Source of the DNA: Vulcanisaeta sp. AZ3
GTDB lineage: Archaea > Thermoproteota > Thermoprotei > Thermoproteales > Thermocladiaceae
DNA length: 64,000 nucleotides
NCBI GenBank assembly: GCA_000960865.2
Contig: JZWU02000003.1
Span: 11,250-75,249, forward strand
Reading direction: 5' to 3'
The translations under genes and the position numbers were made by a program. The notes below the pieces were generated by a model. The model did no database searches. It worked only from the letters and a program-made list of their open reading frames with translations, and was not told the origin of the DNA. Shown piece by piece: positions 1 through 48,003 of the stretch (the first letter of the stretch is position 1; each line of letters begins with the position of its first letter).

Positions 1-410
1 TCTTGGAGCGCAGTATTATCTATCTTAGCCGATAGTCTCGATACCATCTTCAGTAATTCAACATCAACATCCCACTGCTTACTAAGTTCCTCAATCTCTA
101 TTGGCGTATTCAATGCGTAGACCCCCTTACCACCAACAACCTTTATACCCACATCCTCCTTAGCCAGCGACTCCTTAAGCGCAGCAGTAGTTATTGTAGT
201 ACTTCCTGAGGAATCCCAATCCATCCCGATTATGTTATTAAAGGCTTGGAAGAATATTGGGTTCGAAAACAACCTTATTGTTTCCCTAATACCATGTTCA
301 TTAATGAGCAGTTCAACAATTAATCCACTTAACTTAACCATCCTGCTATATAACCATGGTGGTACGTGCCCCGTGTGTAACGGTAAATCGGCAAAACCCG
401 ATATACCCAC
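1..410 (-). CDS. DUF763-family protein, partial (runs off window start)
   Basis: Manual translation from GTG at 410: MGISGFADLPLHTGHVPPWLYSRMVKLS...FFQAFNNIIGMDWDSSGSTT...VVGGKG...SRLSAKIDNTALQ. The ADLPLH, MDWxSSG and GGKG motifs are typical of DUF763. Not in the ORF track. Confidence 0.85.
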   Translation of the reverse strand, partial: MGISGFADLPLHTGHVPPWLYSRMVKLSGLIVELLINEHGIRETIRLFSNPIFFQAFNNIIGMDWDSSGSTTITTAALKESLAKEDVGIKVVGGKGVYALNTPIEIEELSKQWDVDVELLKMVSRLSAKIDNTALQ

Positions 411-518
411 GATTAATTAAGTCAGGACCCTTTATAAAGTCCTTTTGTTTAAATACCCTCGGTAAGGTCTCATTATGAGGTTATATTTTTATGCTAGATT
501 CCGTTCACTAAAGAATTA

Positions 519-1733
519 ATGGACTTCGGTCTGAGCAGGGAGGAGAGTCTATTTAGAGATTCTGTTAGGGAGTTGGGTGAACGTTACATAAAACCATATT
601 GGGTAGATCTCGATGAAGGTAAATACTCACTACTGAACATAATACCGAGACTTGCAGAGCATGGGTTAGTCGGCCTAACCCTAAGTTCTAAGTATGGTGG
701 TTCTGAGGGTTCATTCCTAATGGCTGCTATAGCGGCTGAGGAACTTGCCTATGCAGACCCAAGTCTAGCTGTTCCTGTTTACTTCCTACTAGAGACTGCA
801 TGGCCCTTCATAGTACAGCGATACGCTAGGGATAGTGTTAAGGAGGAGGTTCTACCGAGGCTTACCAAGGGCGAGGCTTGGATTGGTATTGCATCCACAG
901 AGCCTCAGGGCGGTAGTGATGTTGCTAGTGAGAGGACTGAGGCTAGGCTTGTCAATGGTAAGTTTGTGGTTTCTGGTGAAAAGAATATGGTTACTGGCGT
1001 ATCGATAGCTCTTAATTTACCCTATGGTGGTGGTTTTGTAACGATAACCAGAACAGGCTCCCTAGAGGCTAAACACAGGGCGATAACAACAATGTTACTT
1101 ATGATCAAGAGGAATGGCGTGATCAATCAGGGCTTTGAGAATAAAGACTATGAGGAATGGGGTAGAAGAGGCATACCTACAGGTTATTTAAGACTTAATG
1201 GAATAACCGTCGACCCAGATTTCGTGCTTGGAGAGGTCAATGGGGGCTTTAAGATAGCCATGGAGGGCTTCGACGTAGCTAGGACGCTAATTGGTGCGGC
1301 TGCCCTTGGCACAACGCGTTGGATGCTTGAACAGGGTAAGGAATGGGCTAAGAATAGAGTGATCTTTGGTAAGCCCATATCCTCATACCAAGCAATTAGT
1401 TTTAAGTACGCCGAACTAAGTACTAGACTTGAGGCCGCCAGGCTCATGGTTTATAAGGCAGCTTGGTTGGCTGATGAATTCTATAGAGGCGGCTCGATCT
1501 CCATACTGGATGTTGCCAATGCTGGTGCAATGGCAAAAATGCTTGCCGTGGAATTAGCGATCGATGCTGGGCTAGAGGTTATGAAGTGGTTTGGCGGTGT
1601 TAGTTACTTCAAGGAGACGCCCATAGCTAGGGCATTGTTGGGAGCACTGAGTTATTACGTAGGTGCTGAGGGTACACAGAATATTATGAGGCTTATAATT
1701 GCTAGGAACCTAATAGGTAAGGAGGTAGAGTAG
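519..1733 (+). CDS. acyl-CoA dehydrogenase
   Basis: MDFGLS start, STEPQGGSD, GEKNMVT, RVIFGKPISSYQAISFK, catalytic Glu region GAEGTQNIMR. Confidence 0.93.
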   Translation: MDFGLSREESLFRDSVRELGERYIKPYWVDLDEGKYSLLNIIPRLAEHGLVGLTLSSKYGGSEGSFLMAAIAAEELAYADPSLAVPVYFLLETAWPFIVQRYARDSVKEEVLPRLTKGEAWIGIASTEPQGGSDVASERTEARLVNGKFVVSGEKNMVTGVSIALNLPYGGGFVTITRTGSLEAKHRAITTMLLMIKRNGVINQGFENKDYEEWGRRGIPTGYLRLNGITVDPDFVLGEVNGGFKIAMEGFDVARTLIGAAALGTTRWMLEQGKEWAKNRVIFGKPISSYQAISFKYAELSTRLEAARLMVYKAAWLADEFYRGGSISILDVANAGAMAKMLAVELAIDAGLEVMKWFGGVSYFKETPIARALLGALSYYVGAEGTQNIMRLIIARNLIGKEVE

Positions 1734-9654: not shown

Positions 9655-10596
9655 TCATGATAATAGGGATATTAGGACAGCCTTAGCGGTGTGAAATCTA
9701 TTCTCTGCCTGATCCCAAACGACACTCTGAGGTCCATCAATTACTTCATCAGTAACCTCTAAGCCTCGGTGAGCAGGGAGACAATGCATGAAGACTGCTT
9801 GCGGCCCTGCCTTCTTCATAATCTCAGTATTAACTTGATAAGGCTTGAATACGTTCATTCTCTCCTCAGCCTCGACCTCCATACCCATGCTAACCCAAAC
9901 ATCGGTGTATATGGCATCAACACCCCTAACATCATCAGTATTGTCACTAATTACTATATTTGCACCGGTCTTCCTTAATTCCTCAGTTAGAGTTTCCATG
10001 AATTTCGTAGGCCAGTACTTCCTGGGCGAGATTACCCTAACTTCCCAACCAAGCTTAGCACCTATTATCATGAGTGAATGAGCCATGTTATTATCACCAT
10101 CACCCATGAAAGCCAACTTCAAACCGTCAAGCTTACCCTTAACTTCCCATAGGGTTAATGCATCAGCTAACACTTGTAATGGGTGCTCCTGATCACTTAA
10201 TGCATTTATTACCGGTGCAACTGCGTACTTCGCCATCTCTATTAGAGATTCATGCTTATAGACTCTGGCGGCTATGGCATCCACGAACCTATCCACGACC
10301 CTAGCAGTATCTGCTATTGCCTCACCACGACCTAACTGAAGCTCTTGGGGATTGGAGTAAATAACGTGCATACCCAATTGCGTAGCTGCCACATCCAGAC
10401 TAACCCTTGTTCTTGTGCTTGGCTTCTCAAATATCATAAGTAGAGTCTTACCCCTCAATACCTCACTGTATCTATCTCCTTGGTAATACCGAGATTTTAG
10501 ATCCCGGGATAAGGTCAATAGGTATTTTATTTCGTCCGCTGTGTAGTCCATCAGTGTTATGAAATCCCTACCCTTAAGTGCTTTCGTGTTTGTCAT
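9655..10596 (-). CDS. argF: ornithine carbamoyltransferase
   Basis: FEKPSTRTR, HPLQVLAD, YTDVWVSMG, FMHCLPAHRG, DQAENR. Confidence 0.96.
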   Translation of the reverse strand: MTNTKALKGRDFITLMDYTADEIKYLLTLSRDLKSRYYQGDRYSEVLRGKTLLMIFEKPSTRTRVSLDVAATQLGMHVIYSNPQELQLGRGEAIADTARVVDRFVDAIAARVYKHESLIEMAKYAVAPVINALSDQEHPLQVLADALTLWEVKGKLDGLKLAFMGDGDNNMAHSLMIIGAKLGWEVRVISPRKYWPTKFMETLTEELRKTGANIVISDNTDDVRGVDAIYTDVWVSMGMEVEAEERMNVFKPYQVNTEIMKKAGPQAVFMHCLPAHRGLEVTDEVIDGPQSVVWDQAENRFHTAKAVLISLLS

Positions 10597-46887: not shown

Positions 46888-46979
46888 GGCCCCGTAGCTC
46901 AGCATGGATAGAGCGGCGGCCTTCTATCGAGACGGGAGAGAGCCGTAGGTCGTGGGTTCAAATCCCACCGGGGCCGCCA
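46888..46979 (+). tRNA. tRNA-Arg(TCT) with 14-nt intron at 37/38 (46927-46940)
   Basis: GGCCCCG/CGGGGCC acceptor plus G73 and CCA; GCGGC-CT-TCT-A[TCGAGACGGGAGAG]A-GCCGT; the intron forms a BHB (CTTC/GGAG helix, two 3-nt bulges). Confidence 0.95.
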
Positions 46980-47054
46980 ATCACTCACCGCGGTTTCTTC
47001 AAGATTTTAATGAATAGTCACCTTTATGAGTTACCTTTCTAGATTTATTGGCGG

Positions 47055-47103
47055 TTGATGAGACATTGCAGTACTGATTGGTGAGGAGACTGACCTGCTC
47101 TGA
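47055..47103 (+). ncRNA. box C/D guide sRNA, predicted 16S targets
   Basis: C TTGATGA, guide GACATTGCAGTA, D' CTGA, C' GTGAGGA, guide GACTGACCTGCT, D CTGA; canonical 12-nt guides. Confidence 0.85.
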
Positions 47104-47120
47104 GTATATGATTAGAATTA

Positions 47121-47170
47121 TCAGCATATAACCGCGTTCGTCAACGATCAGTCACCTCCTCTCTCGTCAC
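47121..47170 (-). ncRNA. box C/D-like sRNA with guide complementary to the 16S rRNA 3' end
   Basis: Minus strand: C GTGACGA, guide GAGAGGAGGTGA, D' CTGA, C' TTGACGA, guide ACGCGGTTATATG, D CTGA. Confidence 0.75.
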
Positions 47171-47256
47171 TGTAGTATTGTGATTTTAACTCCTCAAGTT
47201 TCTTATGCAGCATAGTGGATAATACTTAATAAATTAGTGTAATATAAGTTAATGTT

Positions 47257-48003
47257 ATGGAATTACTCAAATGTGACGTTTTGAGTGACCTAATTGAGGG
47301 TTTCCCATATGGCTACATGATTTTAATTAGGGGCGACCTAGGCATGGGAAAGACACTTATCGTGAAGATACTTGCACGGAGAATACTTCAAAGCAACCCG
47401 TTGCTTTATGTATCCCTTGATGATGATCCTGAATCAATAATTAATGATCTTAAGGACACGAGTGGTAGGTTGTTCATAATTGATGGATTTACATTGGGTG
47501 ATCAGCGCAGGATTAAGGCCCCTAACATTGTTGATGCAATTACTGAGTTAGATCCAGGACAGTTGATTAGTAAGGTTAGGCAGGTAATATATTCAAAAGG
47601 CATTCGGGGGCTTATCATGGATTCGATAAATGACTTACTCATTAATATCGACCCCAGAGGATTAATTACTGTGCTTAAGCAATTAAAATCCGTATCAAGG
47701 ACTTACAACTTAATAACCTTCATGGTTGCTCACGTAACCACGGATGATGTTGATAATCTACTTAATAACGTTGAGTATGTGTTTGATGGTGTAATCGAGA
47801 TGGAGTTTGATGAGAATATGGCAAGCCTAGGAATACCAGTGAGGAGGCTTAGGATAAAGAGGATGAAGGGAATCTCTCATTCAATGAATTGGTTATACTT
47901 TACAACGGCTAAGGGCACCATAGTCCCCATAGATGTAAATGAGATCAGAAACATGCTAAAGAATACCCTTGAAAGCCTTGGAGTTCAACTACAGAGCAGT
48001 TAA
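47257..48003 (+). CDS. single-domain KaiC/RAD55-like RecA-superfamily ATPase
   Basis: Walker A RGDLGMGKT, Walker B LIMDS, EYVFDGVIEM, RRLRIKRMKG. Confidence 0.88.
   Translation: MELLKCDVLSDLIEGFPYGYMILIRGDLGMGKTLIVKILARRILQSNPLLYVSLDDDPESIINDLKDTSGRLFIIDGFTLGDQRRIKAPNIVDAITELDPGQLISKVRQVIYSKGIRGLIMDSINDLLINIDPRGLITVLKQLKSVSRTYNLITFMVAHVTTDDVDNLLNNVEYVFDGVIEMEFDENMASLGIPVRRLRIKRMKGISHSMNWLYFTTAKGTIVPIDVNEIRNMLKNTLESLGVQLQSS

Follow-up and report, generated by a model that had tools for sequence, protein, structure and literature searches.

Guide RNAs directed at the extreme 3' end of archaeal 16S ribosomal RNA (rRNA) have a published precedent. In Nanoarchaeum equitans, the box C/D small RNA (sRNA) Neq sR13 guides Am1534, a 2'-O-methylation within the anti-Shine-Dalgarno (anti-SD) sequence, as reported from matrix-assisted laser desorption/ionization mass spectrometry (MALDI-MS) and RiboMeth-seq (Seistrup et al., Nucleic Acids Res 2017, PMC5389701); the same paper assigns Um1528 and Gm1530 to other sRNAs, and gives the guide of Cm1533 in Ignicoccus hospitalis 16S as “a presently unknown sRNA”. 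Here we describe a previously unannotated sRNA gene on the minus strand at 47121-47170 of a 64,000-nucleotide (nt) stretch of contig JZWU02000003.1 from Vulcanisaeta sp. AZ3 (the whole stretch is hereafter the window), which is a further example of this known guide type, with a new register. The novelty implied by the earlier note on this DNA does not hold, as anti-SD 2'-O-methylation had already been shown in N. equitans (with Neq sR13) and I. hospitalis (PMC5389701): sRNA-guided methylation in the anti-SD is a published principle, and the window element is a new example of it.

Read along the minus strand from 47170 to 47121, the element has its boxes in the order C, D', C' and D, with the D' guide between the first two, a loop between D' and C', and the D guide between the last two, which is the C-D'-C'-D architecture that the earlier note had described:

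47121..47170, minus strand: box C/D sRNA gene from C to D box, 50 nt; one of 15 architecture matches in the genome, with homologues in six other Vulcanisaeta
47164..47170, minus strand: C box GTGACGA (RNA GUGACGA), with a non-canonical C at position 5
47152..47163, minus strand: D' guide GAGAGGAGGTGA (RNA GAGAGGAGGUGA), 12 nt; positions 2-11 from the D' box pair with 16S CACCUCCUCU
47156, minus strand: position 5 of the D' guide, opposite the predicted methylation site (C1536 equivalent)
47148..47151, minus strand: D' box CTGA (RNA CUGA); CUGA in six of seven homologues, CCGA in G007
47144..47147, minus strand: loop TCGT, 4 nt; 4-7 nt among homologues
47138..47143, minus strand: C' box TGACGA (RNA UGACGA); UGAUGA in all six relatives
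47125..47137, minus strand: D guide ACGCGGTTATATG (RNA ACGCGGUUAUAUG), 13 nt, orphan
47121..47124, minus strand: D box CTGA (RNA CUGA); the same in all seven homologues

A relaxed architecture pattern (TGANGA, 10-13 nt, CYGA, 2-8 nt, TGANGA, 10-13 nt, CTGA) recovered these 15 sites from the 1.51-Mb genome (55 contigs, GC content 42%, 89.85% complete) and none from the reversed genome used as control, and a strict UGAUGA version recovered three sites against none. With guides of 12 and 13 nt and a total of 50 nt (12 nt and 11-13 nt for the guides of the relatives), the element has the dimensions of a C/D sRNA, and its D' box CUGA, 4-nt loop and C' box UGACGA are those of a K-loop. The tandem G-A dinucleotides for the kink-turn (K-turn) and K-loop are retained in all four boxes, and the D' guide is intact. 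Its UGACGA boxes are off the textbook sequence, yet ordinary for this organism, since position 5 often departs from U across the 15 sites (in 5 of the C boxes and 9 of the C' boxes). The genes for fibrillarin (PF01269, 336.6 bits) and Nop5 (PF01798, 236.5 bits) are neighbours on contig C1 of the assembly. An Rfam scan of the window at gathering score returned three transfer RNAs (tRNAs) only, with no family at the element; at an E-value threshold, the minus strand weakly matched sR14 (RF01145, 14.7 bits) and sR2 (RF01139, 13.7 bits), below their gathering thresholds (38 and 42 bits, respectively), so that the sRNA has no curated family membership and shares with these two families only a generic similarity of boxes and spacing.

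Seven of the 13 Vulcanisaeta genomes carry the gene (the window genome, G007, G003, G002, G009, G005 and G008), convergent in each with the same neighbouring sRNA gene. An exact guide-plus-boxes pattern matched 6 of the 120 genomes of the class, all of them Vulcanisaeta, and the reversed control pattern matched none; G007 is missed by this pattern because its D' box is CCGA. The conservation in relatives that the earlier note had called for is thus present, and the exact pattern is confined to Vulcanisaeta within the class. Mean pairwise identity among the seven species is high in the boxes (C 0.90, D' 0.93, C' 0.95, D 1.00) and in the D' guide (0.93), and low elsewhere (D guide 0.50, loop 0.25, flanks 0.35-0.36), which shows that the boxes and the D' guide are the parts under selection. 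The same comparison qualifies the claim of a shared UGACGA in both C boxes, which is true of the window copy but peculiar to it: the C box of the relatives reads GUGAGGA or GUGAAGA and their C' box is the canonical UGAUGA, so that only the window copy has a C at position 5 in both, along with the most divergent D guide. Decayed remnants are visible at the syntenic site downstream of the neighbouring sRNA gene in L011 (genome G011) and L010 (genome G001), where the C and C' boxes can still be made out but nothing is left of the D' box, the D box or the tail guide, while the 16S tail is unchanged. Judging from these alignments and the reversed-genome control, we consider it very likely that the element belongs to a real sRNA gene family.

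As had been proposed, the D' guide finds its complement in the 16S 3' tail. The 16S 3' end is identical in all seven Vulcanisaeta for which it is available (GGAUCACCUCCUCUGGG, also given as GGATCACCTCCTCTGGG), and in each of them guide positions 2-11, the ten positions scored in every guide scan, are perfectly complementary to CACCUCCUCU. Against the rRNA loci of G008, G004, G011 and G012, the window guide forms 11 contiguous Watson-Crick pairs with UCACCUCCUCU, the 12th position being mismatched. D' guides ending in C rather than A forfeit position 1 alone, outside the scored positions. By chance, a perfect 10-base-pair (bp) site in a 4.9-kb Vulcanisaeta rRNA operon was obtained for 24 of 5000 composition-matched shuffled guides and for 21 of 5000 random 10-mers. 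On this complementarity, the 16S tail is the likely target of the D' guide. The nucleotide opposite guide position 5 (N+5) is the second C after A1534, the equivalent of C1536 within the CCUCC anti-SD; this is the second C of ACCUCC named in the earlier note, and the numbering agrees with the fragments U1528-G-G-A-U1532 and A1534-C1535 given in PMC5389701, against which it was checked.

Eight of the ten pairs fall inside the Rfam small-subunit (SSU) model, which ends ...CACCUCCU, and two (C and U) lie past its end, in what may be either mature 16S or trailer. The suggestion that the guide may extend beyond the mature 3' end is in keeping with a duplex that runs 2 nt past this model. Upstream of long open reading frames (ORFs), Shine-Dalgarno (SD) cores were counted at 109 of 1032 against 34 in the control window, by a crude ORF-based count, and GGTGA (GGUGA), which pairs with UCACC including C1536, at 73 against 8. 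This enrichment indicates that the 16S tail is in use for initiation.

The best explanation of the element is probably a canonical archaeal box C/D sRNA that guides methylation at the C1536 equivalent of the 16S tail. The sRNA would assemble with L7Ae, Nop5 and fibrillarin (the composition of the C/D ribonucleoprotein, or RNP, and the N+5 rule are summarised in PMC6009581), its D' guide would form a duplex at the very end of 16S with CACCUCCUCU, made up of the anti-SD core and two or three further bases, and fibrillarin would 2'-O-methylate the cytidine opposite guide position 5, equivalent to Escherichia coli C1536. The D guide would be an orphan, making at best a weak secondary contact. Because the ten-base duplex needs two bases past the end of the SSU model, its substrate is most likely 16S that is still nascent or in precursor form, before the final 3' trimming. 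The likely benefit would lie in stabilising and pre-ordering, at high temperature, a 3' tail that is unstructured and functionally important, with a transient chaperone or masking effect for as long as the RNP is bound. That the C1536 equivalent is methylated in AZ3 is predicted with more reserve than the target, as rather probable, since the window copy is the most deviant of the seven.

Several points weigh against this explanation. The AZ3 assembly covers only model positions 4-857 of the 16S and has no 23S, so that the target is deduced from congeners, and the action on the precursor is likewise a deduction. Target and guide are both invariant in the genus, which offers no within-genus compensatory change; the single exception is an A-to-G change in the guide of G007, which keeps a G-U pair, in a genome where the 16S end is unassembled. 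The gene is absent from three complete congeners (G004, G011 and G012) despite their identical 16S tail, which indicates that any function is non-essential: the gene is dispensable within the genus. Finally, the deviations of the window copy, in both C-type boxes and in the spacing of an upstream TTAAAA element, could impair its expression or RNP assembly.

By its published description, Neq sR13 resembles the window sRNA: both are box C/D sRNAs in which one of the two guides matches the 16S tail (positions 1531-1540 for Neq sR13), and the anti-SD 2'-O-methylation directed by Neq sR13 (PMC5389701) is of the kind predicted here. The register differs, the Neq sR13 target A1534 lying two bases upstream of the C1536 equivalent, and so does the second guide, which targets A1408 in helix 44 for Neq sR13 and is an orphan in the window sRNA. 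N. equitans is also without RsmA/Dim1, for which the sRNA was proposed as a replacement checkpoint (PMC5389701), whereas the window genome retains a homologue (161 bits), which argues that its sRNA is no stand-in for a missing Dim1 checkpoint of that kind; a Nob1-type PIN domain is marginal in the genome (27.2 bits, cut-off 27). The Cm1533 of I. hospitalis likewise is a ribose methylation of an anti-SD cytidine, in a crenarchaeal hyperthermophile that has RsmA/Dim1 too (PMC5389701), and lies three bases upstream of the site predicted here.

The C/D sRNAs of Pyrobaculum (Lui et al., Nucleic Acids Res 2018, PMC6009581) come from the same order, share the architecture and N+5 logic, and commonly have divergent K-turn boxes. 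The exact Vulcanisaeta pattern was found in none of 18 Pyrobaculum (g6) genomes, and a looser pattern in two, both rejected on inspection. A Cm1533-type tail guide was not found in Ignicoccus pacificus and four other genomes (five of the genomes behind the 18 contigs matched by the I. hospitalis probe given in PMC5389701); one looser I. pacificus match looks like a ribosome-binding site before a GTG start and not like an sRNA. The anti-SD as a C/D target goes unmentioned in the main texts of PMC6009581, PMC4644070 and PMC7994747, three large archaeal catalogues whose supplementary target tables may list such targets. A keyword search of the literature linking C/D sRNAs with the anti-SD returned no paper, although Seistrup et al. 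(PMC5389701) nonetheless report such an sRNA.

The alternative that survives best, which we nonetheless hold to be unlikely, is that the RNA does bind the tail but has a main role other than methylation, either transiently masking, as an RNP, both the anti-SD and the site of 3' cleavage, or blocking a mispairing of tail and trailer with helix 34 (GAGAGGAGGUGC), and thereby timing 3' maturation. The 2 nt of duplex past the SSU model end fit such a role, and chaperone or checkpoint functions have been proposed for Neq sR13 (PMC5389701) and for dual-guide sRNAs (PMC4644070). So does the D' guide GAGAGGAGGTGC of G003, G002 and G009, which is identical over its 12 nt to a sense segment of 16S in the 5' strand of helix 34, just upstream of AUGGCCGUCG (as shown by 12/12 matches on the antisense strand of rRNA loci L063, L061, L064, L062 and L065), meaning that tail plus trailer could pair over 10 bp with the internal segment GAGAGGAGGUGC. 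However, this identity may just follow from a shared complementarity to the anti-SD, and nothing in transient binding sets this RNA apart from ordinary methylation guides, which do the same. Moreover, the register exactly fits the N+5 rule, and three complete congeners with the same tail and helix 34 segment have lost the gene. Elsewhere in the AZ3 genome, an sRNA candidate on contig C17 (position 23047, plus strand) has a D' guide, TATGCACCTCCG, that pairs 10/10 with the same helix 34 segment.

Slightly less probable still is a family that functions elsewhere in Vulcanisaeta, with a window copy that is weakened or decaying and poorly expressed or assembled. The C at position 5 of both C-type boxes and the most divergent D guide would be expected of such a copy, as would the promoter-like TTAAAA element (47184-47189), which lies 13 nt upstream of its C box as compared to 22-28 nt in the six relatives, and the same locus has clearly decayed in G011 and G001. 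Yet the window copy has kept the G-A dinucleotides of all four boxes and an intact D' guide, a position 5 other than U is frequent among the other sRNA candidates of this genome, and another A/T-rich stretch, ATAAGAAA, is available ~30-36 nt upstream.

Far less plausible is an sRNA acting on mature 30S subunits as a competitor for the anti-SD, which would lower SD-dependent initiation. In mature subunits the 16S tail is unpaired and open to binding, and eight of the ten paired bases lie within the Rfam-defined 16S; but sRNP abundance would have to match that of ribosomes, no precedent turned up in the literature searched by keyword, and the conserved D' box register, together with the co-variation with trailer bases described below, better fits a modification guide acting on the precursor. 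Weakest of all, and rejected here, is the reading, named as a refuter in the earlier note, in which there is no sRNA and GGAGGUGA, with its perfect SD core GGAGGTGA in a genome where such cores are enriched upstream of ORFs, is the ribosome-binding site of a 7-codon TTG micro-ORF or of a 42-codon ORF (47127..46999, starting with the ATG at 47127) among boxes that arose by chance, as neither ORF is conserved in relatives (the TTG is missing in all six, where the C' box is TGATGA, the ATG is replaced by ACA or TTG, and 11-nt D guides throw the ATG-to-TGA reading out of frame), the 42-aa ORF crosses the neighbouring sRNA in antisense orientation, the reversed genome yielded no false positives for the architecture, and conservation tracks boxes and guide instead of codons.

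For the D guide of the preferred C/D methylation guide, no convincing target was found in the rRNA operons of five relatives, in the 16S locus of each species with its 1.5-kb flanks, or among the 43 tRNAs of the AZ3 genome, which bears out the impression of the earlier note that it matches no recognisable rRNA segment; the best rRNA and tRNA matches all have mismatches or several G-U pairs. The best recurrent match, 16S helix 34 UGCAUGGCCGU (8 Watson-Crick pairs, one G-U and one mismatch), and another best match, 16S AGUACGGCCGC (with a mismatch at N+5), are no better than chance, and exact 10-mer targets in the AZ3 genome are likewise at chance level. A 10-bp match of the G003 D guide ~470 nt upstream of 16S was judged to be chance, as it lies in a conserved zinc-ribbon-like coding sequence; such a sequence (…KCPRCGMRQIAVLKYGEDP…) is seen upstream of the rRNA operon in L034, L035, L039, L041, L044 and L055. 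One orphan guide is nevertheless ordinary, given that 28% of Pyrobaculum guides (292/1052) are reported as orphans (PMC6009581).

The element sits in a 277-nt gap between an intron-containing tRNA gene and a KaiC-like ATPase gene, which it shares with a second sRNA:

46888-46979, plus strand: tRNA with intron, Arg-TCT (aragorn, intron search)
47050..47105, plus strand: second box C/D sRNA, convergent with the candidate (Rfam sR1, 26 bits, E-value 6.4e-5, below gathering score)
47257-48003, plus strand: KaiC-like ATPase gene

The second sRNA is a bona fide and typical dual-guide 16S sRNA, with a D guide that pairs 10/10 with 16S GCAGGUCAGU and a D' guide that pairs with 16S GCUGCAAUG, 39 nt downstream of the D-guide site, and it is kept beside the candidate in relatives. 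It is unannotated and lies 71 nt downstream of the tRNA gene on the same strand, and co-transcription of the two is possible. Upstream of the candidate, the element at 47184-47189, reading ACTTAAAA(G) (CTTTTAAGT on the opposite strand), is conserved across the homologous upstream regions L004-L013, and may have a divergent promoter role instead or in addition. On the 16S side, matches break at model positions 828-830 on contig C29 of the AZ3 assembly (70-948, minus strand) as well as in G003, G009, G023, G027, G032 and G040, which suggests either a 16S intron or a recurrent assembly break.

Outside Vulcanisaeta, a pattern scan of 401 genomes of the phylum gave 31 matches in 27 genomes, against six control matches. 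Among these, on inspection, are complete C/D sRNAs with a guide pairing to GAUCACCUCC(N) in other registers, for which Cm1533 and Cm1535 are predicted, as compared to Cm1536 in Vulcanisaeta:

genus g45, 12 of 17 genomes: UGAGGA-AUGGAGGUGAUCU-CUGA-loop-UGAUGA-guide-CUGA, with UGAGGA-AUGGAGGUGAUCU-CUGA also seen on contigs under Brockarchaeota, Thermofilaceae, Njordarchaeota and other titles
genus g39, 2 of 6 genomes: AGGAGGUGAUCU, pairing with its own tail at positions 2-12
genera g38 (3 of 4 genomes) and g19 (1 of 1): the tail guide is the D guide and not the D' guide, GAAGGAGGUGAU/A followed by CUGA

Wherever they are assembled, the 16S tails of these genomes fit their guides, and the g38 tail AUCACCUCCUUC pairs 12/12 with the g38 guide. 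The bases after CCUCC co-vary with the 5' part of the guide (UCU with guide AGA in Vulcanisaeta, UUC with guide GAA in g38), and at the two positions after CCUCCU the change from CU with guide AG to UC with guide GA is compensatory across lineages, which supports the distal pairing. Matches of the phylum scan at L079, L080, L093, L103, L104 and L106 were rejected on inspection for want of C' and D boxes, as were looser-pattern matches in G076, G080, G100, G006, G012, G034 and G109.

A search of a species-representative genome collection for GGAGGTGATCTCTGA followed by a loop and TGATGA returned 31 stretches, 30 of them archaeal by title and one bacterial. In 20 of these, a TGANGA C box comes immediately before the match, and 14 satisfy a strict pattern that requires both C and D boxes. 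The archaeal titles comprise Brockarchaeota, Thermofilaceae, Desulfurococcales and Sulfolobales metagenome-assembled genomes (MAGs), Njordarchaeota, MAGs titled Nitrososphaerota or Thaumarchaeota, Thermoproteota MAGs, a Crenarchaeota MAG, an uncultured archaeon and Thermoproteus sp. CP80. The D' guide type (AU)GGAGGUGAUCU (L081-L092 and L123-L153), which predicts Cm1533, is widespread. In the form found in g45 and under Brockarchaeota titles, the D guide GAAACUCCAUU shows complementarity to a portion of the D' guide of the same sRNA (AAUGGAG). Within Vulcanisaeta, a second C/D sRNA on AZ3 contig C30 (~9790-9848, plus strand; also L100, L101, L102 and L105) occurs in all five Vulcanisaeta genomes covered by the phylum scan; the pairing of its D guide (GGGAGGTGAAGA, with variants) to the tail is limited to UCACCUCC (positions 4-11), with positions 2-3 always mismatched, and no better target was found for it in the rRNA loci or the AZ3 genome.

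Taken jointly, these guides raise the tentative possibility that the 16S 3' tail is a recurrent and uncatalogued hotspot of C/D guides across thermophilic archaea, with the modified position sliding between C1533, C1535 and C1536. As the guides co-vary with bases downstream of CCUCC, the RNPs would then recognise the precursor ahead of 3' trimming, a step that they could gate; the Vulcanisaeta RNP would compete with the 10-bp mispairing of the tail with helix 34 (GAGAGGAGGUGC), and the GGAGGUGAUCU-type guide would be the kind of guide missing for Cm1533 of I. hospitalis. The tail guides of the other lineages could be either diverged homologues that have slid in register or independent inventions.

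The anti-SD tail both selects mRNAs and hosts the final 16S 3' cut. A guide that modifies or covers it ties the making of ribosomes to the initiation of translation, a connection shown in two organisms only, N. equitans and I. hospitalis (PMC5389701), and the window element and its relatives suggest that the practice is broader among thermophiles. While the window alone amounts to an ordinary annotation, the cross-lineage pattern of tail guides is the part most worth attention, and the Vulcanisaeta with and without the gene, which share an identical tail, are natural material for testing the effect of a single anti-SD ribose methyl.

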